Shown: in pieces, positions 323 to 55,271 of the stretch
How the letters are laid out: each line of letters starts with the position of its first letter
Numbering within the stretch: position 1 is the stretch's first letter
Assembly: GCA_965223415.1 (NCBI GenBank)
Contig: OZ245002.1
Span: 4,768,001-4,832,000 of the forward strand
DNA from: Myxococcota bacterium
Lineage (GTDB): Bacteria; Myxococcota_A; UBA9160; UBA6930
DNA: 64,000 nucleotides
Reading direction: 5' to 3'
Program-made: the position numbers and the translations under genes
The notes under the pieces: model-generated
The model's database searches: none
What the model saw: the letters and a program-made list of their open reading frames with translations, nothing else
Told to the model about the DNA's origin: nothing

Positions 323-672
323 GCTTCGCGATCGCTGCCAGCCGAGGGCTCCAGAGGTTCGAGTCCGCTCGGAGCGCCAATGATTCCGGGACCCCAGGGC
401 GGGTTCCGCCGGTCGCCGGCGCGGCGCCGCTGTCCCAGCAGGGCGTGAGGAAGCTGGGCAGCCCCTAGCGCTCGTGCAGGACACGGGTCGTCCCGCCAGG
501 CTCGACGCTCTCTACCCTGAAGGCCAGCTCGCGCATCTTCCGTATCGATCCCTCGACCGCCAACCCTCGGTGGACACCCAAAACCGGCCATAGAAGGACG
601 TCTGAAAAGCGGCCATAGGGGCTGACGCCCAGGACGTTGACGACGGCGAGGGACCTGCGATCCCCCGCCGCC

Positions 673-2262
673 ATGGCGAACCTTCTGGGCAACGAGAAAC
701 GCGAGCAGATTCTGGCACTTGGCCGCCTCGGCTGGTCGCTTCGGCGGATCGAGGAGGCGACGGGCGTGCGCCGGGAGACGGCGAGCCGTTACCTCCGGGC
801 CGCGGGGATCGCGGTGCGATCTCCTGGTCGCTGGGGGCACGGGGCCCCAAACCCGGCCATAGAGGCGTCCACCGACTCGAAGGCCCCGGCAAAAGCGGCC
901 AAAGAGGCGTCCACCGATCCGGCCTGGCCGCCGATGCCGGGCCGGAGCCCCCAGGCCAGCGCCTGCGAGCCCTACCGCGAGTGGATCGAGGCGGGCGTGC
1001 GCCAGGGCCGGACGGCGATGGCGATCTGGCAGGACCTAGTCGATGACCACGGCTTCGCCTTCAGCTATGCGAGTGTGAAGCGCTTCGTGGCGAAGCAGCG
1101 AGCCGCGGCGCCGCGCGAGGCGCACCCGGTGATCGAGACGGCACCGGGAGAAGAGGGCCAGGTCGACTACGGCGACGGGCCGATGGTGCGGCATCCCGGG
1201 TCGGGGAAGTACCGGCGCACGAGGCTGTTCGTCTTCACCCTGGGCTACAGCCGCAAGTGCGTTCGGCTGCTCGTGTGGAAGTCGAGCAGCCAGGTCTGGT
1301 CGGAGCTGCACGAGAAGGCCTTCCGCCGGCTGGGCGGTGCACCGCGCACCGTCGTCCTCGACAACCTCAAGGAGGGCGTTCTCAAGCCCGACGTCTACGA
1401 CCCCGCGCTCAACCCCCTCTACCGCGATGTGCTCGCCCACTACGGCGTGACGGCGCTTCCGTGCCGGGTGCGCCACCCCGATCGCAAGGGGAAGGTCGAG
1501 TCCGGGGTGCGCCACGCGCAGCAGAAGGTCCGCGGGATGCGCTTCGAGTCGCTCGAGCAGGCCCAGGCCTACCTCGACCGCTGGGAGCGCCGATGGGCCG
1601 ACACCCGCATCCACGGCACGACCAAGCGCCAGGTGGCGGCGATGTACGAAGAGGAGAAGCCGCACCTGCTCGGGCTTCCCATCGAGCCCTTCCGCTACTA
1701 CCAGCACGGCGAGCGCACGGTGCACCTCGACGGGGCCATCGAGGTGGAGGGGGCCTACTACCACGCGCCGCCGGGCTGGCTGGGGCGGCGGGTGGCCGTC
1801 CAATGGGACGGGCTGCGGGTGCGGATGCTCGATCTGCAGACGGGGGAGCTGCTGCGCGAGCACGTCCGCCAGAGGCGGGGGCGCCGCAGGATGCGGGAGG
1901 AGGACCGCCCGAAGCGGACGCCGGCCACGACCCTCCAGCTGCTCGCGCGGGCCCGGCGCGCCGGCGTCCACGTGGGCGAGGTGTGTGAGGCGATCCATCG
2001 CCTGGACGGCGAGCCCGGGGTGCGTCGCATCCTGGGCGTGCTCTCCCTGTGCAAGCGCCACGGCATCCCTCGCGTCGACGATGCCTGCGCCACCGCCCTG
2101 GCCCTCGAGCTGCCCACCTACGCGTTCGTCAAGCGCTACCTGGAGCGTCAGCCCGAGCTGCCGCTCTCGCTCAAGCAGGTGGACCCGCTCATCCGCCAGC
2201 TCACCCACTACCGCGATCTCATCGATCGCCGCACCGAGGAGACCTCTCGTGAATCTGACTGA
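673..2262 (+). CDS. istA: IS21 transposase IstA
   Basis: GQVDYG, VLDNLK, KGKVESGV DDE motifs; N-terminal HTH. Confidence 0.95.
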   Translation: MANLLGNEKREQILALGRLGWSLRRIEEATGVRRETASRYLRAAGIAVRSPGRWGHGAPNPAIEASTDSKAPAKAAKEASTDPAWPPMPGRSPQASACEPYREWIEAGVRQGRTAMAIWQDLVDDHGFAFSYASVKRFVAKQRAAAPREAHPVIETAPGEEGQVDYGDGPMVRHPGSGKYRRTRLFVFTLGYSRKCVRLLVWKSSSQVWSELHEKAFRRLGGAPRTVVLDNLKEGVLKPDVYDPALNPLYRDVLAHYGVTALPCRVRHPDRKGKVESGVRHAQQKVRGMRFESLEQAQAYLDRWERRWADTRIHGTTKRQVAAMYEEEKPHLLGLPIEPFRYYQHGERTVHLDGAIEVEGAYYHAPPGWLGRRVAVQWDGLRVRMLDLQTGELLREHVRQRRGRRRMREEDRPKRTPATTLQLLARARRAGVHVGEVCEAIHRLDGEPGVRRILGVLSLCKRHGIPRVDDACATALALELPTYAFVKRYLERQPELPLSLKQVDPLIRQLTHYRDLIDRRTEETSRESD

Positions 2263-3010
2263 ACTCGATCCCGCACTGCGCAAGCTCCGGCTCTCGGGCA
2301 TGGCCGAGCATCTGGAGATGCGGCTCCTCGAAGCCCAGAAGGGCGAGTGGGCGGCCATCGACCTGCTCTCGGCGCTCGTCCAGGACGAGCTCGAGCGCCG
2401 GCAGGACCGACTGCTGGCCCGGCGCATCAAGCAGGCCCGCTTCCGCGACGCCAACCGGACCCTCAACGGCTTCGACTTCCGCTTCAATACGAAGATCGAT
2501 CGCGCCCTGGTCTTCGAGCTCGCCACGGGCCGCTTCCTCGAGCAAGCCGAGGACGCTGTCTTCCTCGGCCCGCCGGGCACGGGCAAGAGCCATCTCGCCC
2601 AGGCGATCGGCCTCGCCGTCATCCACCAGGGCCATCGCGTCGCCTACCGCGAGGTCCACGTCCTCCTCGAGGAACTCGCTGATGCGACCCTCGACGGCAC
2701 CCGCAAGGAGTACCTGGCCGAGATGGCGAGCGTGCCGCTGCTCATCCTTGACGACCTCGGCATGCGCAAGCTCCCCACCACGGCCGCCGAGGACCTGCTC
2801 GAGCTCATCATGCGCCGCTACGAGCGCACCAGCACCCTCGTCACCTCGAACCGACCCGTCGACGACTGGGGCCGGCTCCTCGGCGACACGGCAGCCGTCA
2901 CCGCCATGCTCGACCGCCTCCTCCACCACGGCCACCTGCTCAAGTGCGGACCCCGCAGCTGGCGCACCAAGAAGACCACGGCCTTGCCGAAGGAGGCTCC
3001 GGCGCGGTAG
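2249..3010 (+). CDS. istB: IS21 helper ATPase IstB
   Basis: GPPGTGKS, LLILDDLG, TSNRP, DRLLHH; GTG start overlapping istA end. Confidence 0.95.
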   Translation: MNLTELDPALRKLRLSGMAEHLEMRLLEAQKGEWAAIDLLSALVQDELERRQDRLLARRIKQARFRDANRTLNGFDFRFNTKIDRALVFELATGRFLEQAEDAVFLGPPGTGKSHLAQAIGLAVIHQGHRVAYREVHVLLEELADATLDGTRKEYLAEMASVPLLILDDLGMRKLPTTAAEDLLELIMRRYERTSTLVTSNRPVDDWGRLLGDTAAVTAMLDRLLHHGHLLKCGPRSWRTKKTTALPKEAPAR

Positions 3011-3089
3011 AACCCCTCTGTCCTGGGCGCGGCCCTTTGGCCGCCTTTGAGACGTCCACCTTTGGCCGGTTTTCAGACGTCCACCGAGG

Positions 3090-7117: not shown

Positions 7118-7770
7118 TTGCTCGAACAGCGAGAGCGGGACAGCTGCTAATGGAGTGTCGTACTGTTGTACGTGTTGACCATTGAAACGAGGCGAGCCCA
7201 AGTCTCTGTGTCAAGGGAAGGGCTAAGCTCGACCTTGCGAGCCAACGCTGCGATCAAACCCATGAGGCCTGGGAAGCGGCCCAGGCACGGATGGAGTCGC
7301 GGCGGCGACCGCGGGATCGCAACCGCGCGGGCGGGCGCGCCCAGGGCCGCTACCTCCTTTCTGGGCTTTTGGCCTGCGGGCTCTGCGGCGGCGGCTTCTG
7401 GGCGATCGATCGTCGCGGGGTGTTCGGCTGCGGGGCGCGGAAGGATCGGGGCAGGGCGGCCTGCGGCTGTGAGCTGCGCGTCGCGGCGGACGACCTGGAG
7501 GGTCGAATCGTTGGCGCGCTCCGCGACCAGGTCCTCACCGAAGAGAATGTGGCGCGGGTCGCCGACCGCGCGCTGCAGATCGTGCAAGAGCAGCTCGGCG
7601 CTCAGAGCGACGATCCGACCGAACGCCTGAAGGCTTGTCGAGGGACGTCATCTCTTGCGCGCTAAGAGGACGGCTAGTTTTGCGCACCCCCCTGGGTTGA
7701 TGTTCGGTTCTTCCTTCTTCTCTTCCGCTCTCCGAAGGAGAGCACGGCCGTCAGGCCGCCCTCTGGGGCC

Positions 7771-8571
7771 TCAACGCTGGGCGCTTTGCCCCGCGGCCTG
7801 CTCGAGCTCGCGGAGCCGGTAGCTCCGCCCCGAGATGTTGAGCACCTGGCTGTGGTGGAGGAGGCGATCGAGGATGGCGGTGGCCAGCACCTCGTCGCCC
7901 GCCAGCACCTCGGGCCAGTCGGCGATGCCCTTGTTCGTGGTGATCAGGATCGAGCCCCTCCCATAGCGGTAGGAGACGAGCCGGAAGAAGAGGCTCGCCT
8001 CCTGGCGCGTCATGGGCTCGAAGCCGACCTCGTCGATGACGAGGAGCGCCACGTTCATGTGCTTGCGCCGCCGCAGCCGTTGCGGGCTGATCTCGGCGTC
8101 GCGCTTGAGGGCCGCCAGCAGGTCCTCGAGGCGATGGAAGGCCACGGAGAAGCCGTTCTCCACGGCCCGCACCCCCAGGGCCACCGCCAGGTGGGTCTTG
8201 CCCACTCCCGGCGGACCCTGGATCAGCAGACTCTCCTTGGCCCGGATCCACGCGCAGGTGCCCAGCGTCTCGATCCGGCTCCGCTCCACACTCGGCTGGA
8301 AGGCGAAGTCGAAGTTGCCGAGGGTCTGCCCCGTGGGAAGGCCCGAGAGACGGAGCGAGGTCTTCATCCTCCGCTCCTCGCGGTGCTGCAGCTCGGCCTC
8401 GAGCAGCAGGTCGAGGAAGCGGTGGGGCACGAGGTCGTCCTTGGTCGCTCGGGCCAGCTCCTCGCCGATGTGCTCGGCCGCGTGATGGAGGCCGAGGCGC
8501 ACGAGCCGCTCGCGGGTCGGGTCGAGATCCACCTTGCCGCCCTTCTTGGGCACCGGGTTTCCCGCCGTCAT
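7771..8571 (-). CDS. istB: IS21 helper ATPase IstB
   Basis: GPPGVGKT, LLVIDEVG, ITTNK, DRLLHH. Confidence 0.95.
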   Translation of the reverse strand: MTAGNPVPKKGGKVDLDPTRERLVRLGLHHAAEHIGEELARATKDDLVPHRFLDLLLEAELQHREERRMKTSLRLSGLPTGQTLGNFDFAFQPSVERSRIETLGTCAWIRAKESLLIQGPPGVGKTHLAVALGVRAVENGFSVAFHRLEDLLAALKRDAEISPQRLRRRKHMNVALLVIDEVGFEPMTRQEASLFFRLVSYRYGRGSILITTNKGIADWPEVLAGDEVLATAILDRLLHHSQVLNISGRSYRLRELEQAAGQSAQR

Positions 8572-9854
8572 CGCGCCACCTCCGCCAGATCGGCATAGAG
8601 GTCGATCGGCCGCTGCTCCGGCTCCATCGCCCACAGCTCCTGGAGGCGTCGACCCATGCGCCCGAGCGGTACGGGCGCCTCCACCCCCTCCGTGCTCGGC
8701 CCCTCGTAGTGGCTCGGGTCCAGCAGCAGGCGGCTTCGCGTGTGGCGCGGGTGCGCGGCCACCACCGAGCCCTCGGCCCAGACCTGCACCTGCCGGGCGC
8801 AGCCGCGCACCTCGACGCTCTGCTCGACGAAGCGGAAGGGGACGCTGTAGGTACGCCCCTCGAAGCGCACCGTGGCGTCGCGCCCGACACGTCGCATCAC
8901 GGCCAGGTCGAAGGGCTCGGGAAGCCGCTCGGGCAGGGCCCCGAGATGGGGCTTCTCCGCCTCCCACGCCTGGAAGACCGTCGTGCCCGTCGCCGGGCAC
9001 TGCCGCCGGTGGCTCGAGCGCGCCACCTGGCCGTCCGTCCACGCTTGCAGCGACTCCAGGCTCTCGTGCTCCCGCCGACGCGGATCGAAGCCCCGCCGGT
9101 GCCCCAGGATCCGACGCTCCACCTTCCCCTTCTCCTGCGGCTGGCGGGGACGGGTGGCGTCCACGTGGAAGCGAAGGGCCCCGGCATAGCTCGCGTAAGC
9201 CGGGTTCACCGTCCCCCATGGCCCCGCCCCCTTCGCCACCGCTGTCTTCACGTTGTCGACCCGCAGCACCGCCGGCACCCCGCCCAGCCGCTCGAAGGCC
9301 CGGTTGTGCACGTCCAGCCACGCCAGCGTGTCCGCCCGCTCCGACCACACCACCGCTTCTCGCCGCGAGTGCGAGAGCACCAGGTGGAAGGCATGCAGGT
9401 CCACCTCCTGGCCCCCGATCCGCACGCCCGGAAACTCGCCCCAGTCCACCTGACCCTGCGCCCCGGGCGGTGTCTCCACCCGACGCCGGCTCCGCACCTT
9501 CGGTCTCGGGAACCGGGCCCGCACGTACCGCTGCACGCTCTTGGAGCTCCCCGTGTACCCGTGCTCCTCCACCAGGAACTCGTGAAGCTCCTGCAGGTTC
9601 ACGCCACGGCCTCCCGAGCTCGCCTCCAGCCACTCCGCGATCACCTCGTGGACCGCCTCGGCCAGGAAGGGCTTCCCGCTCCGGCCGTCTCGCGCCCCCT
9701 CCGCCAGCCGCTTCAGCCGGTAGCGCACCGCGCTCTCCCGGATCCCCAGCTGGCGGGCGATCTCCCGGTTCGAGCACCCCCGCTCGTGCAGCACTTCGAT
9801 CGTCATCACTTCCTCCTGCCTCAGTCGCCGCTGCCCCACGCCCCCCTCCCTCAC
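8568..9854 (-). CDS. istA: IS21 transposase IstA (start uncertain)
   Basis: GQVDWG, RVDNVKT, KGKVER; N-terminal HTH. Confidence 0.95.
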   Translation of the reverse strand: MREGGVGQRRLRQEEVMTIEVLHERGCSNREIARQLGIRESAVRYRLKRLAEGARDGRSGKPFLAEAVHEVIAEWLEASSGGRGVNLQELHEFLVEEHGYTGSSKSVQRYVRARFPRPKVRSRRRVETPPGAQGQVDWGEFPGVRIGGQEVDLHAFHLVLSHSRREAVVWSERADTLAWLDVHNRAFERLGGVPAVLRVDNVKTAVAKGAGPWGTVNPAYASYAGALRFHVDATRPRQPQEKGKVERRILGHRRGFDPRRREHESLESLQAWTDGQVARSSHRRQCPATGTTVFQAWEAEKPHLGALPERLPEPFDLAVMRRVGRDATVRFEGRTYSVPFRFVEQSVEVRGCARQVQVWAEGSVVAAHPRHTRSRLLLDPSHYEGPSTEGVEAPVPLGRMGRRLQELWAMEPEQRPIDLYADLAEVAR

Positions 9855-10312
9855 GGGGAACGTGCCGCGCAGCGGCTCAACAGGAGGTGCGCAAATCTAC
9901 GTGTCCTCTTAGCCCTCGAATATCACGTCCTGCGACAAGGCTCTCGACGAGCAGATCGAGCGCGCAGTCGACCTCGCGGTCCGAAGTGGCGGCGTCGAGG
10001 CCGTGGGGCGCAAGCTGAGGAAGCTGGAGGCGGAGCGAGAGAGGCTCGCCGTCCAGCAGGCACAGGCGCCGCCGGCGCTCGACCTTGGCGCACTCCGAAG
10101 CCGCGCGCTGGAACTCGCGGCCGACCTTCGGGCCACGTTCGCGCTGGCACCCGACGAGACGCGCAGTGCGCTGCGGATGCTCGTCGGAGATGACCGAATC
10201 CGCGTGTCCCCCGACCCTGATCGCGGTTTCCGCGTCGAAGGGGTCGTGGGGCTTCCCTGGGGACCCCCGAGGCCACTGGCCGGGGCCGAAGCCCCGGCGC
10301 AGTGGCGTCAGG

Positions 10313-47034: not shown

Positions 47035-47111
47035 TGCGCAGGTTGTAGCGGGCCCGGGCCCCCTGTCGCGATCATCTCTACTACTGGTAGTGTCCTGCCC
47101 CGTGGGGGTAG

Positions 47112-47384
47112 TCATCTCGGGGCCATAATCGCCGCCCGGACGGCATCCTGGGCCGACTCGACCGGCGGCTCGTGCAGTACCGCCGTCACCTCCCCGTCCA
47201 CCTCCCAGGCGTAGCACCTGGGCGCCGTCGGGTGGCCCAGCAGCTCGAACACGAGCACCTCGCCCTCCCAGACGGTCTCGCCTTGGAAGGTCTCCACGAC
47301 GGGCTCCCGGCGCTCAAGGCGGCTCTTGGCGCCGTGGGTGGCCCGAATAGCCTGCTCGATCTGCGGGATCGGCAGCTCGTTCAT
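47112..47384 (-). CDS. hypothetical 90-aa passenger protein
   Basis: MNELPIPQ..ETFQGETVWEGEV..GHP..RCYAW; starts 2 bp after upstream stop, ends beside IR. Confidence 0.75.
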   Translation of the reverse strand: MNELPIPQIEQAIRATHGAKSRLERREPVVETFQGETVWEGEVLVFELLGHPTAPRCYAWEVDGEVTAVLHEPPVESAQDAVRAAIMAPR

Positions 47385-47386
47385 TC

Positions 47387-48193
47387 CTATTCGGGCCGGG
47401 GCGAGCGCTCTGCGATTGCAGCACGCACATCGATGCCGCCCTCGCCCTCGTACATGAGGTCGAAGATGTTGGCGGCCGTCTGGAGCCACTTGGCGCGTTC
47501 GGGAATCGGCCACTCGCTATCCGGCTCGGGCAGGGATCCGAGCAGACCCTGGATGAACGGATGCAAGCCGTCGGAACCATCGCCTCCGCCATGGTTCGGG
47601 TTCTCGTCAACCTCGTTCACCGGGGGATCATTCTGCGGGGTCGTCACTCCGGGGCGCACCAGCCGATTGCGTCCGTGCTCGAAGAACCCGGCCCGCTCCG
47701 CGGAGCGCTCCAGAACCTGGCGAGCCCGGCTCTTCTGCTTGTCCGCAACGCCCAGGCCTTGCATGTCGCGTTCGAGGGCAGCCGCCGGCGGAACGACGCC
47801 CCCGCTGTACTTGTCGTACACCTCGCGGTAGAGGGGCACCGAGAGGAACGCATCGACGAGCGCCGCTCGCGCCTGACTCGGGTCCATGGCTCGGCGCCCG
47901 AGGTCAGAGAGGCGGTGCATCCCGGACCCACTGCCACCCTCGATGAGGCGGAAGTGGCGCGCCGACGCGACCTGGGTGCGATACGCGCTGCTCTTCGGGC
48001 TCTGGTTCGTCCAGGGCGCGAGCTGGTCGTCGGAGCACTCTCCGCTCCCGACGTTCGAGTGGATCGCCTCGGCCATCTGAATCGCCGAGGCCAGATCGCT
48101 GTAGGGGAACGCGATCGTGGACCGCTGGCGCCCCCCGCCGTCTTCCTTCGCCGTCGCCGCATCCGCGACCGACGGGATCGAGTCTCCGCTCAT
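47387..48193 (-). CDS. hypothetical passenger protein, possible winged helix
   Basis: GGGAGG RBS; FPY..SARHFRLI..LSDLGR pattern; C-terminal LHPFIQGLL..W..W domain. Confidence 0.75.
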   Translation of the reverse strand: MSGDSIPSVADAATAKEDGGGRQRSTIAFPYSDLASAIQMAEAIHSNVGSGECSDDQLAPWTNQSPKSSAYRTQVASARHFRLIEGGSGSGMHRLSDLGRRAMDPSQARAALVDAFLSVPLYREVYDKYSGGVVPPAAALERDMQGLGVADKQKSRARQVLERSAERAGFFEHGRNRLVRPGVTTPQNDPPVNEVDENPNHGGGDGSDGLHPFIQGLLGSLPEPDSEWPIPERAKWLQTAANIFDLMYEGEGGIDVRAAIAERSPRPE

Positions 48194-48282
48194 GCGAACC
48201 TCCCTTGCCGCAAGAGTGAATCGCGGCGTCCACGAATCTAGCAGACAAAGCGTGCTTGTCTCGCAGTCCGCAGTCGAAATGG

Positions 48283-48311
48283 TTGACAATCGCGGATTGC
48301 GACGCTCTACT
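48283..48311 (+). promoter_or_regulatory. sigma70-like promoter upstream of non-coding region
   Basis: TTGACA-17 bp-TCTACT. Confidence 0.55.
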
Positions 48312-48480
48312 TGTCTGACGCCCGTCCAGCATGCGGAGGAAAGCGGTGAGGAGGGTCTAGAGCGCCGGTGGCTGGAGTGGTCCACCCCGAACGGCGCGAA
48401 CACAAGTAACACCGCCCGGTATCCCGTCCTAGCTGGCCAGCCTTCGGGGATACCGGGCGGGAGGACCTGCCCGCCCCAGT

Positions 48481-48551
48481 GGGGCACGCAGGTTTGCCGG
48501 CAGAGGTCTTTACAGCCGTCTCCGTCGGGTTCGACTCCCGAGTGCTCCACC
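48481..48551 (+). ncRNA. tRNA-like cloverleaf, non-canonical
   Basis: Acceptor GGGGCAC/GTGCTCC + ACC; T arm TCGGG-TTCGACT-CCCGA; short D arm; bulged 6-bp stem with loop CTTTACA. Confidence 0.7.
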
Positions 48552-48568
48552 CGGGGCCTGGGCTCAGC

Positions 48569-48760
48569 TTAGCCAAGGTCCGCCCGTTCCAGCAGTACGG
48601 CCCTCGCCCAAGGTGAGAAGGCCATATCGGCCTTCTTGGCCGCCTTCTGGAGCTTCGCCCGGTCCGAAGCCCGCAGACGGATCGTGACTACTACGTCTTG
48701 GTCCTGCCCCTTCGGGAGCTTCGGTCTGCCCCTCGGGCGCTTCCTCGTTCTCGCCGCCAT
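48569..48760 (-). CDS. small ribbon-helix-helix-like DNA-binding protein
   Basis: RGRPK then VTIRL..LQKAA..SPWAR; divergent from transposase. Confidence 0.7.
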   Translation of the reverse strand: MAARTRKRPRGRPKLPKGQDQDVVVTIRLRASDRAKLQKAAKKADMAFSPWARAVLLERADLG

Positions 48761-48808
48761 GCGATTTCTTGTACCACATCAAATGAATATCTGCACTACG
48801 AAAAATCC

Positions 48809-48837
48809 TTGATTGCCCTTGATATTTGTAGTACATT
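48809..48837 (+). promoter_or_regulatory. transposase promoter, probably leaderless transcript
   Basis: TTGATT-17 bp-TACATT, ATG 6 nt downstream, no SD. Confidence 0.6.
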
Positions 48838-51168
48838 AAATCCATGGCGCGGCTCACCACGGACAAGAAGGCCACCATCCTCGGCGCCTTGGTCGAGGGC
48901 TCCTCGATCCGCTCGACCGAGCGCATGACCGGCGTCCACCGCGACACCATCTGCAAGCTCGTGGTGGAGACGGGCCGGAAGGCTGAACGGATCATGGCCG
49001 ACGAGATCCGCCACGTGCAGCCCCAGAGCCTCCAGCTGGACGAGATCTGGTGTTTCGTGGGGAAGAAGAAGGCCAACCTCAAGAAGACCGATGACCCGCG
49101 CACCACGGGCGACGCCTGGTGCTGGGTGGCCCTCGATCCCGATTCCAAGCTCGTCCCCCACCACCTGGTCGCGAAGCGCGAGGCTCGCGACGCCGTGCGG
49201 TTCACCCGCGAGCTGGCCCAGCGCGTCGAAGGCCGCATCCAGATCAACACTGACAAGCTCGGGGCCTACCGGCAGGCTGTCTTCGCGGCATGGGGCAGGG
49301 ACGTGGACTACGGCCGGATCGTAAAGCGGTTCTCAGGGGAGCCTCTGGACTCCGGTAGGTACTCGCCGCCGAAGGTGGTCGCGGTGGACCGGAGATCGTC
49401 TACGGAAACCCCGATCCAACCACGATCTGCACCTCCCATGTCGAGCGGAACAACCTCACGATGCGGATGGGGATGCGACGCTTTACGCGGCTGACCAACG
49501 GGTTTTCCAAGAAGGTCGAGAACCTCCGGGCCGCGGTGGCGCTTCACTTCTGCCACTACAACTTCATCCGCCGGCACGCCACCATCAAGACGACCCCGGC
49601 CCTGGCGGCAGGGGTCACGGACCACCGCTGGACCCTGGCCTCGGTGGACACCCAAAACCGGCCATAGAAGGACGTCTGAAAAGCGGCCATAGGGGCTGAC
49701 GCCCAGGACGTTGACGACGGCGAGGGACCTGCGATCCCCCGCCGCCATGGCGAACCTTCTGGGCAACGAGAAACGCGAGCAGATTCTGGCACTTGGCCGC
49801 CTCGGCTGGTCGCTTCGGCGGATCGAGGAGGCGACGGGCGTGCGCCGGGAGACGGCGAGCCGTTACCTCCGGGCCGCGGGGATCGCGGTGCGATCTCCTG
49901 GTCGCTGGGGGCACGGGGCCCCAAACCCGGCCATAGAGGCGTCCACCGACTCGAAGGCCCCGGCAAAAGCGGCCAAAGAGGCGTCCACCGATCCGGCCTG
50001 GCCGCCGATGCCGGGCCGGAGCCCCCAGGCCAGCGCCTGCGAGCCCTACCGCGAGTGGATCGAGGCGGGCGTGCGCCAGGGCCGGACGGCGATGGCGATC
50101 TGGCAGGACCTAGTCGATGACCACGGCTTCGCCTTCAGCTATGCGAGTGTGAAGCGCTTCGTGGCGAAGCAGCGAGCCGCGGCGCCGCGCGAGGCGCACC
50201 CGGTGATCGAGACGGCACCGGGAGAAGAGGGCCAGGTCGACTACGGCGACGGGCCGATGGTGCGGCATCCCGGGTCGGGGAAGTACCGGCGCACGAGGCT
50301 GTTCGTCTTCACCCTGGGCTACAGCCGCAAGTGCGTTCGGCTGCTCGTGTGGAAGTCGAGCAGCCAGGTCTGGTCGGAGCTGCACGAGAAGGCCTTCCGC
50401 CGGCTGGGCGGTGCACCGCGCACCGTCGTCCTCGACAACCTCAAGGAGGGCGTTCTCAAGCCCGACGTCTACGACCCCGCGCTCAACCCCCTCTACCGCG
50501 ATGTGCTCGCCCACTACGGCGTGACGGCGCTTCCGTGCCGGGTGCGCCACCCCGATCGCAAGGGGAAGGTCGAGTCCGGGGTGCGCCACGCGCAGCAGAA
50601 GGTCCGCGGGATGCGCTTCGAGTCGCTCGAGCAGGCCCAGGCCTACCTCGACCGCTGGGAGCGCCGATGGGCCGACACCCGCATCCACGGCACGACCAAG
50701 CGCCAGGTGGCGGCGATGTACGAAGAGGAGAAGCCGCACCTGCTCGGGCTTCCCATCGAGCCCTTCCGCTACTACCAGCACGGCGAGCGCACGGTGCACC
50801 TCGACGGGGCCATCGAGGTGGAGGGGGCCTACTACCACGCGCCGCCGGGCTGGCTGGGGCGGCGGGTGGCCGTCCAATGGGACGGGCTGCGGGTGCGGAT
50901 GCTCGATCTGCAGACGGGGGAGCTGCTGCGCGAGCACGTCCGCCAGAGGCGGGGGCGCCGCAGGATGCGGGAGGAGGACCGCCCGAAGCGGACGCCGGCC
51001 ACGACCCTCCAGCTGCTCGCGCGGGCCCGGCGCGCCGGCGTCCACGTGGGCGAGGTGTGTGAGGCGATCCATCGCCTGGACGGCGTGTCGCAGGACGTGA
51101 TATTCGAGGGCTAAGAGGACACGTAGATTTGCGCACCTCCTGTTGAGCCGCTGCGCGGCACGTTCCCC

Positions 51169-52455
51169 GTGAGGGAGGGGGGCGTGGGGCAGCGGCGACT
51201 GAGGCAGGAGGAAGTGATGACGATCGAAGTGCTGCACGAGCGGGGGTGCTCGAACCGGGAGATCGCCCGCCAGCTGGGGATCCGGGAGAGCGCGGTGCGC
51301 TACCGGCTGAAGCGGCTGGCGGAGGGGGCGCGAGACGGCCGGAGCGGGAAGCCCTTCCTGGCCGAGGCGGTCCACGAGGTGATCGCGGAGTGGCTGGAGG
51401 CGAGCTCGGGAGGCCGTGGCGTGAACCTGCAGGAGCTTCACGAGTTCCTGGTGGAGGAGCACGGGTACACGGGGAGCTCCAAGAGCGTGCAGCGGTACGT
51501 GCGGGCCCGGTTCCCGAGACCGAAGGTGCGGAGCCGGCGTCGGGTGGAGACACCGCCCGGGGCGCAGGGTCAGGTGGACTGGGGCGAGTTTCCGGGCGTG
51601 CGGATCGGGGGCCAGGAGGTGGACCTGCATGCCTTCCACCTGGTGCTCTCGCACTCGCGGCGAGAAGCGGTGGTGTGGTCGGAGCGGGCGGACACGCTGG
51701 CGTGGCTGGACGTGCACAACCGGGCCTTCGAGCGGCTGGGCGGGGTGCCGGCGGTGCTGCGGGTCGACAACGTGAAGACAGCGGTGGCGAAGGGGGCGGG
51801 GCCATGGGGGACGGTGAACCCGGCTTACGCGAGCTATGCCGGGGCCCTTCGCTTCCACGTGGACGCCACCCGTCCCCGCCAGCCGCAGGAGAAGGGGAAG
51901 GTGGAGCGTCGGATCCTGGGGCACCGGCGGGGCTTCGATCCGCGTCGGCGGGAGCACGAGAGCCTGGAGTCGCTGCAAGCGTGGACGGACGGCCAGGTGG
52001 CGCGCTCGAGCCACCGGCGGCAGTGCCCGGCGACGGGCACGACGGTCTTCCAGGCGTGGGAGGCGGAGAAGCCCCATCTCGGGGCCCTGCCCGAGCGGCT
52101 TCCCGAGCCCTTCGACCTGGCCGTGATGCGACGTGTCGGGCGCGACGCCACGGTGCGCTTCGAGGGGCGTACCTACAGCGTCCCCTTCCGCTTCGTCGAG
52201 CAGAGCGTCGAGGTGCGCGGCTGCGCCCGGCAGGTGCAGGTCTGGGCCGAGGGCTCGGTGGTGGCCGCGCACCCGCGCCACACGCGAAGCCGCCTGCTGC
52301 TGGACCCGAGCCACTACGAGGGGCCGAGCACGGAGGGGGTGGAGGCGCCCGTACCGCTCGGGCGCATGGGTCGACGCCTCCAGGAGCTGTGGGCGATGGA
52401 GCCGGAGCAGCGGCCGATCGACCTCTATGCCGATCTGGCGGAGGTGGCGCGATGA
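51169..52455 (+). CDS. istA: IS21 transposase IstA
   Basis: Translation identical to 8568-9854. Confidence 0.95.
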   Translation: MREGGVGQRRLRQEEVMTIEVLHERGCSNREIARQLGIRESAVRYRLKRLAEGARDGRSGKPFLAEAVHEVIAEWLEASSGGRGVNLQELHEFLVEEHGYTGSSKSVQRYVRARFPRPKVRSRRRVETPPGAQGQVDWGEFPGVRIGGQEVDLHAFHLVLSHSRREAVVWSERADTLAWLDVHNRAFERLGGVPAVLRVDNVKTAVAKGAGPWGTVNPAYASYAGALRFHVDATRPRQPQEKGKVERRILGHRRGFDPRRREHESLESLQAWTDGQVARSSHRRQCPATGTTVFQAWEAEKPHLGALPERLPEPFDLAVMRRVGRDATVRFEGRTYSVPFRFVEQSVEVRGCARQVQVWAEGSVVAAHPRHTRSRLLLDPSHYEGPSTEGVEAPVPLGRMGRRLQELWAMEPEQRPIDLYADLAEVAR

Positions 52456-53252
52456 CGGCGGGAAACCCGGTGCCCAAGAAGGGCGGCAAGGTGGATCTCG
52501 ACCCGACCCGCGAGCGGCTCGTGCGCCTCGGCCTCCATCACGCGGCCGAGCACATCGGCGAGGAGCTGGCCCGAGCGACCAAGGACGACCTCGTGCCCCA
52601 CCGCTTCCTCGACCTGCTGCTCGAGGCCGAGCTGCAGCACCGCGAGGAGCGGAGGATGAAGACCTCGCTCCGTCTCTCGGGCCTTCCCACGGGGCAGACC
52701 CTCGGCAACTTCGACTTCGCCTTCCAGCCGAGTGTGGAGCGGAGCCGGATCGAGACGCTGGGCACCTGCGCGTGGATCCGGGCCAAGGAGAGTCTGCTGA
52801 TCCAGGGTCCGCCGGGAGTGGGCAAGACCCACCTGGCGGTGGCCCTGGGGGTGCGGGCCGTGGAGAACGGCTTCTCCGTGGCCTTCCATCGCCTCGAGGA
52901 CCTGCTGGCGGCCCTCAAGCGCGACGCCGAGATCAGCCCGCAACGGCTGCGGCGGCGCAAGCACATGAACGTGGCGCTCCTCGTCATCGACGAGGTCGGC
53001 TTCGAGCCCATGACGCGCCAGGAGGCGAGCCTCTTCTTCCGGCTCGTCTCCTACCGCTATGGGAGGGGCTCGATCCTGATCACCACGAACAAGGGCATCG
53101 CCGACTGGCCCGAGGTGCTGGCGGGCGACGAGGTGCTGGCCACCGCCATCCTCGATCGCCTCCTCCACCACAGCCAGGTGCTCAACATCTCGGGGCGGAG
53201 CTACCGGCTCCGCGAGCTCGAGCAGGCCGCGGGGCAAAGCGCCCAGCGTTGA
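52452..53252 (+). CDS. istB: IS21 helper ATPase IstB
   Basis: Translation identical to 7771-8571. Confidence 0.95.
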   Translation: MTAGNPVPKKGGKVDLDPTRERLVRLGLHHAAEHIGEELARATKDDLVPHRFLDLLLEAELQHREERRMKTSLRLSGLPTGQTLGNFDFAFQPSVERSRIETLGTCAWIRAKESLLIQGPPGVGKTHLAVALGVRAVENGFSVAFHRLEDLLAALKRDAEISPQRLRRRKHMNVALLVIDEVGFEPMTRQEASLFFRLVSYRYGRGSILITTNKGIADWPEVLAGDEVLATAILDRLLHHSQVLNISGRSYRLRELEQAAGQSAQR

Positions 53253-53629
53253 GGCCCCAGAGGGCGGCCTGACGGCCGTGCTCTCCTTCGGAGAGCGGAA
53301 GAGAAGAAGGAAGAACCGAACATCAACCCAGGGGGGTGCGCAAAACTAGCCGTCCTCTTAGCGCGCAAGAGATGACGTCCCTCGACACGGCGAGCCCGGG
53401 GTGCGTCGCATCCTGGGCGTGCTCTCCCTGTGCAAGCGCCACGGCATCCCTCGCGTCGACGATGCCTGCGCCACCGCCCTGGCCCTCGAGCTGCCCACCT
53501 ACGCGTTCGTCAAGCGCTACCTGGAGCGTCAGCCCGAGCTGCCGCTCTCGCTCAAGCAGGTGGACCCGCTCATCCGCCAGCTCACCCACTACCGCGATCT
53601 CATCGATCGCCGCACCGAGGAGACCTCTC

Positions 53630-54391
53630 GTGAATCTGACTGAACTCGATCCCGCACTGCGCAAGCTCCGGCTCTCGGGCATGGCCGAGCATCTGGAGAT
53701 GCGGCTCCTCGAAGCCCAGAAGGGCGAGTGGGCGGCCATCGACCTGCTCTCGGCGCTCGTCCAGGACGAGCTCGAGCGCCGGCAGGACCGACTGCTGGCC
53801 CGGCGCATCAAGCAGGCCCGCTTCCGCGACGCCAACCGGACCCTCAACGGCTTCGACTTCCGCTTCAATACGAAGATCGATCGCGCCCTGGTCTTCGAGC
53901 TCGCCACGGGCCGCTTCCTCGAGCAAGCCGAGGACGCTGTCTTCCTCGGCCCGCCGGGCACGGGCAAGAGCCATCTCGCCCAGGCGATCGGCCTCGCCGT
54001 CATCCACCAGGGCCATCGCGTCGCCTACCGCGAGGTCCACGTCCTCCTCGAGGAACTCGCTGATGCGACCCTCGACGGCACCCGCAAGGAGTACCTGGCC
54101 GAGATGGCGAGCGTGCCGCTGCTCATCCTTGACGACCTCGGCATGCGCAAGCTCCCCACCACGGCCGCCGAGGACCTGCTCGAGCTCATCATGCGCCGCT
54201 ACGAGCGCACCAGCACCCTCGTCACCTCGAACCGACCCGTCGACGACTGGGGCCGGCTCCTCGGCGACACGGCAGCCGTCACCGCCATGCTCGACCGCCT
54301 CCTCCACCACGGCCACCTGCTCAAGTGCGGACCCCGCAGCTGGCGCACCAAGAAGACCACGGCCTTGCCGAAGGAGGCTCCGGCGCGGTAG
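53630..54391 (+). CDS. istB: IS21 helper ATPase IstB (element A copy 2)
   Basis: Translation identical to 2249-3010. Confidence 0.95.
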   Translation: MNLTELDPALRKLRLSGMAEHLEMRLLEAQKGEWAAIDLLSALVQDELERRQDRLLARRIKQARFRDANRTLNGFDFRFNTKIDRALVFELATGRFLEQAEDAVFLGPPGTGKSHLAQAIGLAVIHQGHRVAYREVHVLLEELADATLDGTRKEYLAEMASVPLLILDDLGMRKLPTTAAEDLLELIMRRYERTSTLVTSNRPVDDWGRLLGDTAAVTAMLDRLLHHGHLLKCGPRSWRTKKTTALPKEAPAR

Positions 54392-54498
54392 AACCCCTCT
54401 GTCCTGGGCGCGGCCCTTTGGCCGCCTTTGAGACGTCCACCTTTGGCCGGTTTTCAGACGTCCACCGAGGCCCTGGAGGAGCTGGTAGAGGCGCCGTA

Positions 54499-54846
54499 CT
54501 AGCTCGCGAGCTGGCGGACTGATTCGTCCCAAGCACGCACCTTCTCCTTGGCGATCGGGCCGAGGTTCCGCGCGAGCATCGACATGATGGCGCTTAGGTG
54601 GGGCTTGGCGGCTTCGAAGAGCTCTTCTCCCGTGATTCCCCCCGGAATCAGGGCATCAGATACGGCCTGCTGGACGAACGACGGCATGTCGAGAATGTCG
54701 ATGCCAACGATGCGATCTAGGTCCTCAGAGACCAAGATTGTCATGTCCTCCAGCGGTACCGCTACCGTCTGGCCGCGCAGGTACTCTGAGATGGATACCT
54801 GGACCACGTCCGTATCAGGGCAGTAGATCAGCCTGATTTCGTCCAT
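54499..54846 (-). CDS. DUF2283-like protein, putative antitoxin
   Basis: YCPDTDVVQV...IVGIDILD resembles the YD..D.L....IVGIEI pattern; acidic. Confidence 0.6.
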   Translation of the reverse strand: MDEIRLIYCPDTDVVQVSISEYLRGQTVAVPLEDMTILVSEDLDRIVGIDILDMPSFVQQAVSDALIPGGITGEELFEAAKPHLSAIMSMLARNLGPIAKEKVRAWDESVRQLAS

Positions 54847-55172
54847 ACGACGTTCATCCTTCCTGCGGGGGGAATGGCCTTGTCGTAGGCGGTGACCAGC
54901 TCCCACCAGCGGGGCGGGTCGGCGTTCTTGGGACGCGGTTTTGCCGACACCATATGGGCGCGGTCCTCAGAGAATACCTTGTAGTAGTTCAAAGAGCCGT
55001 GGGCCACGTTCTCGCAGATGAAGCTGGGATCCTCGATGGTCTCCCGCATCCAAGACTGATCGGCCTCCTCATGCCTCTCCTTGATGTGGATATCCCACGT
55101 CCTCTGCCTGAATTTGACGGTGCGTCCCTGGGGATCGTTCACCTCGAAGATGAGAGGGTTTCTGACGGCCAT
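54828..55172 (-). CDS. putative BECR-fold (PBECR2/DUF4258-like) RNase toxin
   Basis: W.HIKERH..TIEDP..YYK..LVTAY pattern; overlaps downstream partner. Confidence 0.6.
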   Translation of the reverse strand: MAVRNPLIFEVNDPQGRTVKFRQRTWDIHIKERHEEADQSWMRETIEDPSFICENVAHGSLNYYKVFSEDRAHMVSAKPRPKNADPPRWWELVTAYDKAIPPAGRMNVVWTKSG

Positions 55173-55243
55173 CCCCGGGGGATATCAGCACCGGCGGACC
55201 AGCCAGTCAAGTCATTCCCTCCGGGGTAGGACACCACCCTACT

Positions 55244-55271
55244 ACTTTACATAATCTATCTTATCGGACAT
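55244..55271 (-). other. dif (XerCD) recombination site
   Basis: Reverse complement ATGTCCGATAA-GATAGA-TTATGTAAAGT: 11-6-11 layout with XerD arm TTATGT.AA.T; intergenic AT-rich patch. Confidence 0.88.

Follow-up and report, generated by a model that had tools for sequence, protein, structure and literature searches.

A small IS1-family cargo transposon whose clade very probably homes to the XerD side of the chromosomal dif site

Introduction

In the literature searched, the only insertion sequences (ISs) found to hunt dif are those of the IS1202 family, mostly from Acinetobacter and on the XerC side of the site. Members of its ISAjo2/ISAba32 subgroup have been named 'dif site hunters' (Harmer, Pong & Hall 2023, PMC10132070; Siguier et al. 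2022, bioRxiv 10.1101/2022.12.17.520857). ISAjo2-type elements encode a TnsB-like transposase, insert in a single orientation and 5 bp away from the XerC arm, and generate a 5-bp target-site duplication (TSD) (PMC10132070). Several insertions at one site are described, the mechanism is left open with contact to Xer proteins proposed, and the analogy with the safe harbour of Tn7 is discussed in both papers (PMC10132070; bioRxiv 10.1101/2022.12.17.520857). Here we analyze a 64,000-nt stretch (the window) of the genome of a Myxococcota bacterium (contig OZ245002.1, positions 4,768,001 to 4,832,000) that carries, at 47086-55238, an IS1-family cargo transposon 5 bp from the XerD arm of dif. We consider it highly probable (about 0.88) that this transposon belongs to a clade that homes, by repeated insertion, to a fixed position on the XerD side of dif.

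The two systems are alike in that an element with a DDE (Asp-Asp-Glu) transposase lies 5 bp from a Xer arm of dif or pdif, leaves the site intact and inserts there repeatedly, and in that neither has a separate target-selector protein of the Tn7 type. They differ in that the ISAjo2 transposase is TnsB-like and 441-457 aa long, whereas the one described here is of the IS1 type, ~273 aa long and unrelated. The ISAjo2 tips are TGT...ACA with a 5-bp TSD, those of the element described here GGnnnTG with an 8-bp TSD that covers 3 bp of the arm; ISAjo2 is found on the XerC side in one fixed orientation, the present elements on the XerD side in both. ISAjo2 is a plain 1.5-kb IS of Acinetobacter and other cultured bacteria, often on plasmids, whereas the elements analyzed here are 3.3-5.6 kb long, carry cargo, a tRNA-like RNA and an accessory open reading frame (ORF), and reside at the chromosomal dif of one high-GC order. 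The preliminary description of this locus had noted that a subgroup of IS1202 inserts a few bp from Xer sites.

The other systems to be compared are IS1 itself, Tn7 and the integrative mobile elements exploiting Xer (IMEX). Elements of the IS1 family have GGnnnTG tips and an 8-9 bp TSD. Classical IS1 has a programmed frameshift between insA and insB and prefers AT-rich DNA, with no fixed site known. The ISfinder classification also has single-ORF or ISMhu11-like subgroups, some members of which carry passenger genes. The element resembles these subgroups in its GGnnnTG tips, imperfect ~22-bp inverted repeats (IRs) and 8-bp duplication, and in its small single-ORF DDE transposase with a ...VER.NLT.R...R.TR.T..FSK motif. 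It differs from described IS1 elements in its targeting: in the full-text literature (ISfinder and TnPedia pages and subscription journals being outside its scope) we found no link of an IS1 element to dif or to −35 hexamers, and the name ISMhu11 had no match in the literature searched.

Tn7 at attTn7 is alike in its base-exact insertion beside a conserved, essential landmark that is preserved. It needs TnsABC and TnsD and inserts in one orientation, whereas here one small transposase serves both orientations. IMEX, such as CTX-type phages, are integrated by XerCD and flanked by dif-like sites. They share residence at dif with the present element and differ from it in that the latter has IRs, a TSD and its own transposase.

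Results

The element spans 8,153 bp (47086-55238) and occurs once in the 5.83-Mb genome. Its ends could be read directly from the sequence. The left inverted repeat (IRL; 47086-47107, plus strand) is GGTAGTGTCCTGCCCCGTGGGG, and the right one (IRR; 55217-55238, minus strand) is, in reverse complement, GGTGGTGTCCTACCCCGGAGGG. The two match at 18 of 22 positions, have the tips GGTAGTG and GGTGGTG, and are of the same type as the IRs of relatives. The right end, ...CCCTCCGGGGTAGGACACCACC, stops at 55238 and is followed directly by CTACTACT (55239-55246), identical to the 8 bp that precede the IRL (47078-47085). The right copy shares its last 3 bp with the start of dif, which places the IR tip 5 bp from the dif 28-mer. 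One transposase gene lies within the element, flanked by small ORFs, and 3,315 bp remain once two IS21 elements and their TSD are subtracted. The preliminary description, made from the sequence, had listed GGT-initiated imperfect IRs at 47086 and 55238, an exact 8-bp duplication with its right copy extending over the outermost 3 bp of the XerD arm, a single internal DDE transposase, passenger genes on both sides and about 3.3 kb without the IS21s. Each of these points holds, and the transposase gene proved to be frameshifted and split by an IS21.

An element that adjoins dif might have been integrated there as an IMEX, by XerCD recombination instead of transposition. At the left junction (47040-47110), however, there is no dif-like sequence or half-site, the element is bounded by terminal IRs within an exact 8-bp TSD, and relatives show the same IR/TSD anatomy at non-dif sites. 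We give integration by XerCD practically no credence.

The site into which the right TSD runs is a 28-mer (55244-55271, plus strand; 11-6-11) with ACTTTACATAA as the XerD arm, the centre TCTATC and TTATCGGACAT as the XerC arm. The E. coli dif sequence and its arm order, and the marks of a chromosomal dif (28 bp, conserved XerD arm, uniqueness, low G+C content, non-coding location, position at the skew terminus and the presence of XerC/XerD), were taken from an earlier report (PMC2731167). The 28-mer is unique in the genome even when 7 mismatches are allowed, is intergenic and is ~70% AT in a genome of 72% GC. It lies at 4.823 Mb, and the cumulative GC skew peaks 13 kb away (4.81 Mb). In a comparison with E. 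coli dif, the element-side arm (as TTATGTAAAGT) agrees with the XerD arm in 9 of 11 bases and the opposite arm with the XerC arm in 5 of 11. Genes for a XerD-like protein (328 bits, just under the cutoff of 329.6) and for a second Xer-like protein (251 bits) are present. An identical or near-identical 28-mer is found in relatives, and a strict dif pattern occurs in 70 of the 193 genomes of the order, nearly always once in each. The site is thus a genuine chromosomal dif. The cumulative GC skew itself is near-flat and noisy across the initial 4.2 Mb, climbs sharply until 4.81 Mb and then declines sharply until 5.82 Mb, a shape that implies either very unequal replichores or a much-rearranged genome.

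The 193 genomes were scanned for a junction pattern made up of the IS tip (MCABYRCC), 5 nt and the XerD arm. The pattern was present in 14 genomes, its reversed control in none, and its mirror image on the XerC side in 0 of 193. When the genomes with a strict dif were considered, 12 of the 70 sites were occupied. In G461 the tip at the dif junction is accompanied by a homolog of the small accessory ORF. In G436 (L263; G436:C2, 3430-3470) a 22-bp palindromic footprint, CTTCAACT|GGCACTGGCAC GTGCCAGTGCC|CTTCAACT, occupies the position beside dif. It consists of two fused 11-bp IR tips within an intact 8-bp TSD, and looks like the remains of an element that was almost wholly deleted or excised.

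These counts bear on the simplest alternative, namely that there is no targeting and an AT-loving IS1 merely happened upon the patch with the highest AT content in a genome of 72% GC. The ~70% AT content of dif and the AT preference of IS1 would fit such a landing. Yet 64 patches of this genome are at least as AT-rich as the dif site, so that AT-richness is not the cause of the position, and the same base-exact position is taken in 14 of 193 genomes when the equally AT-rich XerC side is taken in none. A chance landing is scarcely credible. The preliminary description had suggested that an IS1-like group may target dif and leave the site intact, and had named random insertion at AT-rich sites without fixed spacing as the finding that would speak against it. 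The fixed 5-bp spacing and the 64 equally AT-rich patches are at odds with such randomness; the 14 junctions, the empty mirror pattern and the intact 28-bp dif support the suggestion.

The same question was approached from the transposase, as the preliminary description had proposed: homologous transposases were collected, their IRs and TSDs defined and their distance to dif measured. A search of all 193 genomes (E ≤ 1e-40) gave 15 loci in 12 genomes, and 8 of these are at dif, with the 5-bp geometry throughout: the window, G004:C530, G187:C137, G167:C62, G430:C11, G470:C197 and two in G012:C39. Seven of the eight show the IR tip, 5 bp and the XerD arm directly, G004 and G430 among them. The eighth, the outer element of G012, has the same 8-bp TSD and has been pushed away from dif by a later insertion. 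A ninth (G431:C290) is joined to dif through a junction on contig G431:C59, which completes its element. Elements with both of their ends on the contig have exact TSDs of local sequence: AATCCATT in G187, ATTCTATT in G167, AATCATTT in G470 and AATATTAG in G012. A metagenome element (L148) has the same geometry at dif, with the TSD TCCCTACT. Orientation is free, the 3' end of the transposase gene pointing toward dif in five elements and away from it in four.

In G012 two elements lie side by side, in the layout dif-ATTAG[E1]AATATTAG[E2]AATATTAG. Their transposases are 49% identical and their IRs differ (GGCACTGGCC... vs. GGTGGTGTCC...). The three copies of one 8-mer indicate two successive insertions at one position, the later of which adjoins dif. 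On G430:C6 two elements enclose ATTGTTCG, the reverse complement of the 8 bp beside dif on G430:C11, and the element beside that dif has a third type of transposase. More stacked tips were seen in L149 and G470. As a practical point for annotation, contig breaks or odd genes beside dif in these genomes often turn out to be stacked IS1-like elements.

The preliminary description had also proposed that empty sites be sought in relatives. Ten relatives have such sites, with up to 7 kb on the XerD side free of anything IS1-like. In two of them, G005 and G003, which are of the same genus, a homolog of the left-flank gene of the window lies ~100 bp from dif with nothing between, and synteny is conserved.

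A quick IQ-TREE search covered 110 transposases whose elements have one or both ends mapped, omitting L039, L144, L146 and L149 for unclear ends. The nine dif-associated rows fall in one clade of 12 (approximate likelihood-ratio support, SH-aLRT, 100), the other rows being G172, G125:C7 and G004:C117. Within the clade, sisters come from different host families, and G012-E1 groups with elements of two other families. G004 has near-identical copies at dif and elsewhere. The cross-family sisters and the G004 copies indicate that the association with dif is a property of a transposing, horizontally moving clade and not of one inherited insertion. In the genomes searched, the dif clade is confined to this order.

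One ancient insertion at dif, inherited vertically across the order, would explain why all occupied sites are in one order and why the transposases are 46-73% identical to that of the window, the same range as the divergence of host flanking genes. It would not explain exact TSDs that differ with the local flank, the presence of both orientations, two or three lineages stacked at one dif, or a tree that pairs elements of different host families; moreover, sites are empty within the genus and only 12 of 70 recognisable dif are occupied. We regard common inheritance of one insertion as very improbable.

Several observations weigh against homing of the clade to dif, or reduce the reach of the census. 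(i) Four of the 14 junctions (G014, G016, G030 and G423) consist of a tip alone, no transposase being found over 4-8.6 kb upstream, and the tip of G016 is degenerate; we read these tips as remnants. (ii) Clade member G172, with both ends mapped and an exact TSD (GGGGAGCC), is at a non-dif site, and G125:C7 and G004:C117 show a non-dif flank at their one mapped end. A close relative outside the tree, G009, has IRs with neither a TSD nor a dif. (iii) The stacks of G430:C6 and L149 have no dif on the same contig. (iv) Most genomes of the order are fragmented metagenome-assembled genomes (MAGs), and the tree is a quick search. (v) The XerD and XerC arms are assigned by their likeness to the E. coli dif. 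The left ends of G430:C6 and L149 are unmapped, and the left end of L145 was not found. A non-dif element of another IR type, with the TSD CCTGTGCA, is present in G285.

The transposase gene begins with a part encoding the N-terminal 180 aa (48844-49383, plus strand), comprising the helix-turn-helix region and the first two catalytic Asp residues. Its best NCBIfam match is IS1 (54.5 bits, under the equivalog cutoff of 100), and it is 72% identical to homologs of 273 aa. Between 49383 and 49392 the frame shifts by one base, and the middle and C-terminal part (49392-49638, plus strand), which includes HVERNNLTMRMGMRRFTRLTNGFSK and, in three-frame translation, the motif HVERNNLT...TRLTNGFSK, is in another frame. 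An IS21 interrupts the gene 8 codons ahead of the stop. The last codons and the stop follow at 54477-54502 (plus strand), where the reading ...WTL/EELVEAPY* fits the consensus of the homologs. The latter are single ORFs of ~273 aa, without the classical insA/insB programmed -1 frameshift layout, and the frameshift of the window copy falls within the catalytic domain, after the second Asp and before the Glu. It therefore represents damage or a homopolymer sequencing error, not IS1 recoding.

A homolog search gave 3,091 proteins at E ≤ 0.001 among 3,148 candidates. These are named IS1-family transposases in their sources, and PF03400 is present in most of the 120 listed. P0003, the nearest homolog of full length (72% identity), passes the PF03400 (DDE_Tnp_IS1) cutoff marginally (25.7 vs. 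24.1 bits). The 8-bp TSD is exact here and in most mapped relatives. Profile match, GGnnnTG tips and 8-bp TSD, measured against the ISfinder marks of the family (GGnnnTG tips, 8-9 bp TSD), make the element a single-ORF member of the IS1 family, and the family assignment of the preliminary description is upheld by the best NCBIfam match, the PF03400 homologs, the ends and the duplication. Membership in IS1202 or its ISAjo2 subgroup was considered and is ruled out by the ~273-aa IS1-type transposase, the GGnnnTG tips, the 8-bp TSD, the XerD side and the presence of both orientations. The element is an IS1-family member with a new target habit.

The wider family was sampled through 80 loci from named genomes of many phyla and 80 from metagenomes. 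A same-type IR pair was found in 57 of the 80 genome loci (TSD matching at 7-8 of 8 bp) and in 37 of the 80 metagenome loci, the latter selected by requiring an exact 8-bp TSD. This recurrence of IR pair and TSD indicates that the ends defined in the window are not due to chance. The sample yielded another 93 elements, 1-6 kb long and cleanly bounded, whose 8-bp TSDs are exact or nearly so; nearly all have cargo, and none of the 93 is at a clear dif. Six elements found in the phylum search and six from the clade of the window bring the set with both ends mapped to 105.

In the 210 flanks of this set, TTGAC occurs at offset 15 from the IR tip in 27 (and at offset 16 in 4 more), and a reverse-complement control gave at most 2 at any offset. 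Offset 15 is 7 nt past the TSD, and the motif reads away from the element (e.g., L111, L117, L125 and L175; L057-L227). A −10-like hexamer follows ~17 nt beyond TTGAC, and both element orientations are represented (17 and 14). We conclude that the wider family inserts 7 bp upstream of sigma-70-type −35 hexamers. When 110 elements were classified, 8 were of the dif type, 31 of the −35 type and 71 other. The XerD arm of the order holds TTKWCA (TTTACA, TTGACA or TTGTCA), with the polarity of the −35 hexamer and at offset 7.

Two further settings were observed in this sample. A four-element alphaproteobacterial clade (L097, L113, L124 and L132) lies 12-15 nt from GAACN7GAAC boxes, and in three of the four another IS1-like IR abuts the far TSD, i.e. 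the elements are stacked. GAACN7GAAC is presumably the alphaproteobacterial SOS box, and the clade may represent a third class of landmark, or its members may be at orthologous loci. The right flank of L079, from a Zixibacteria MAG, adjoins ATTTTACATAA, which resembles a XerD arm, with a 3-bp spacer and no clear XerC arm; we left this element unclassified.

We take the element to have arrived through ordinary DDE transposition: a staggered cut of 8 bp at a fixed position duplicated 5 bp outside dif and the outer 3 bp of the XerD arm, and left the 28-bp dif intact. The homing of the clade is confined to the XerD side, with either orientation, and new copies land between dif and older ones, so that stacks and remnants accumulate there.

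For the step in which the site is read, we see an about even chance that the transposase reads the DNA of the XerD arm directly, through the TTGACA-like hexamer. Direct readout is favoured because the XerD arm holds such a hexamer with the polarity of the −35 landmark of the wider family; the dif clade would then have re-used the DNA-reading function of the transposase at a new spacing. Three facts do not sit easily with it: the hexamer lies at a different offset in the dif clade (7) than in the −35 group (15), occupied sites do not all have the same hexamer (TTTACA, TTGACA, TTGTCA), and the clade-specific residues of the transposase are few and scattered, with no insertion or added domain.

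The rival for this step, which leaves the other steps unchanged, is target capture, in which the transposase contacts XerD or XerCD bound at dif, or the edge of the bent DNA. Bound XerD/FtsK had been put forward in the preliminary description as a possible route, and capture is one of the two live mechanisms. The strict side specificity (14 vs. 0), a position that is kept though the outer arm bases vary (ACTTTA, ATTTGA, ACTTGT, AATTGA) and a staggered cut at the edge of the XerD footprint argue for it, and the IS1202 reports offer a precedent, proposed for ISAjo2 and XerC (PMC10132070; bioRxiv 10.1101/2022.12.17.520857). On the other hand, the transposase has no extra domain and few clade-specific residues, relatives in many phyla read a DNA hexamer at promoters, and both orientations occur, unlike ISAjo2. 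Capture through XerD is possible, at odds of roughly one in three. The offset and variation of the hexamer and the clade residues do not decide between direct readout and contact with XerD. A complex prediction with a full-length clade transposase (A2) and the XerD of the same genome (A6) gave no answer (score 0.00), which speaks neither for nor against binding. That another element-encoded factor, the small accessory ORF or the tRNA-like RNA, reads the site appears unlikely.

The tRNA-like RNA (78 nt; 48478-48555, plus strand; covariance model R1, 101 bits) lies upstream of the transposase gene, with a ribbon-helix-helix (RHH) ORF on the opposite strand between the two. The covariance model found it in 25 related elements. 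Compensatory changes were seen at 18 of 22 pairs, with pairing in 95.7% of the cells, a level that none of 500 shuffles reached. The RNA is 92-96% identical across elements whose transposases are 53-64% identical to P0003. Its acceptor stem is 7 bp long, the T arm bears a TTCGA loop, the D stem comprises 2 bp, and a near-invariant YTTACA lies in a loop of 9 nt. ARAGORN did not call it, and the Rfam tRNA-Sec model gave 19.7 bits vs. a gathering score of 47; it is tRNA-like and not a tRNA. All dif-clade elements examined carry it (G012-E2 in a divergent form), as do several elements of the nearest lineages, and the main −35 clade is without it. Processing of a read-through transcript or control of transposase expression are guesses at its role. 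The likeness of the loop (YTTACA) to the target (TTKACA) had raised the possibility of a target guide. We reject the RNA as determinant, because the loop hardly differs between dif-targeting elements and the others and shows no covariation with the sequence of the local arm, and because the main −35 clade lacks the RNA; a helper role is possible.

The accessory ORF encodes a conserved 90-aa protein (47112-47384, minus strand) with an alpha-beta4-alpha fold in an AF2 model (predicted local distance difference test, pLDDT, 93.8). It lies at the IRL end, and in neighbouring lineages sometimes directly downstream of the transposase gene. Homologs are present in 11 of 11 elements compared (10 of the dif clade and G009) and in ~20 elements of neighbouring lineages. 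No match was found in Pfam, NCBIfam or PADLOC, its Atlas clusters contain hypothetical proteins only, and its model gave no Foldseek match below E 0.26; its best VIA match (Z 5.5) was to cystatin/PepSY-like alpha+beta folds.

The remaining cargo differs between dif-clade elements. Four of the element's five small ORFs had no match in Pfam, NCBIfam or PADLOC. A 268-aa ORF (47387-48193, minus strand) has no family match and is not shared with other dif-clade elements; its nearest Atlas clusters are hypothetical, one being auto-named Mrr-like N-terminal, which serves as a lead only. The RHH-like ORF (63 aa; 48569-48760, minus strand), divergent from the transposase gene, has NikA-like/DUF6290 matches below cutoff and homologs with strong E-values in L042, L143-E2, L149, L041 and L040, a weaker one in L068 and a marginal one in L144. 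Between it and the start of the transposase gene lies 48778-48813, the sole other patch of the window that is as AT-rich as dif, and probably the promoter region of the element. On the dif side, a 114-aa ORF (54828-55172, minus strand) has a weak resemblance to barnase/EndoU/RelE-like nucleases (PF18810 PBECR2, E=0.016, 15.9 bits, below the cutoff of 27.1). The 115-aa ORF beside it (54499-54846, minus strand) has no family match and is a possible antitoxin or immunity partner.

The 3' end of the transposase gene is interrupted by IS21-A (49639-54470, plus strand; istA/istB), which is flanked by the TSD CCCTGG (49633-38 and 54471-76) and has perfect termini (CCTCGGTGGAC); the genome holds 8 copies with a full left arm, this one included. 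IS21-B (51086-53386, plus strand; 6-bp TSD) is nested in the istA gene of IS21-A and is one of 18 identical full copies in the genome. The window copy of the transposon is dead: the transposase suffered a frameshift, then IS21-A entered its 3' end, then IS21-B entered IS21-A. Further IS21 copies lie at 568-3089 and 7673-9908 of the window, and several genomic copies are near the terminus.

Discussion

The anatomy of the element, the specificity for site and side, the repeated independent insertions and the clade structure are established by the data presented here. What they document is a second, unrelated and much smaller transposase that hunts dif, on the other arm and in either orientation, carrying cargo. 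dif is thus a safe harbour that has been chosen convergently. In this order about one in six recognisable dif sites (12 of 70) carries such an element or its remains.

A broader reading, on which the family as a whole consists of landmark-homing transposons whose clades have each been retargeted to another conserved landmark bound by protein (the XerD edge of dif, a position 7 bp upstream of −35 hexamers and possibly SOS boxes), is speculative, and we would give it about one chance in five. On this reading a re-tunable reading module in one small transposase would bring about the retargeting, perhaps with help from the tRNA-like RNA or the 90-aa ORF.

IS1202 and the clade described here form a natural pair for the question of how a DDE transposase finds a Xer site, and the few residues that separate the dif clade from its −35 relatives provide a short list for mutagenesis. 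A 273-aa transposase with 22-bp ends tolerates several kb of cargo, and may serve site-specific insertion if its reading module is understood. Should the landmark-homing reading be true, the family would constitute a compact, naturally re-programmable system for site-specific DDE insertion.

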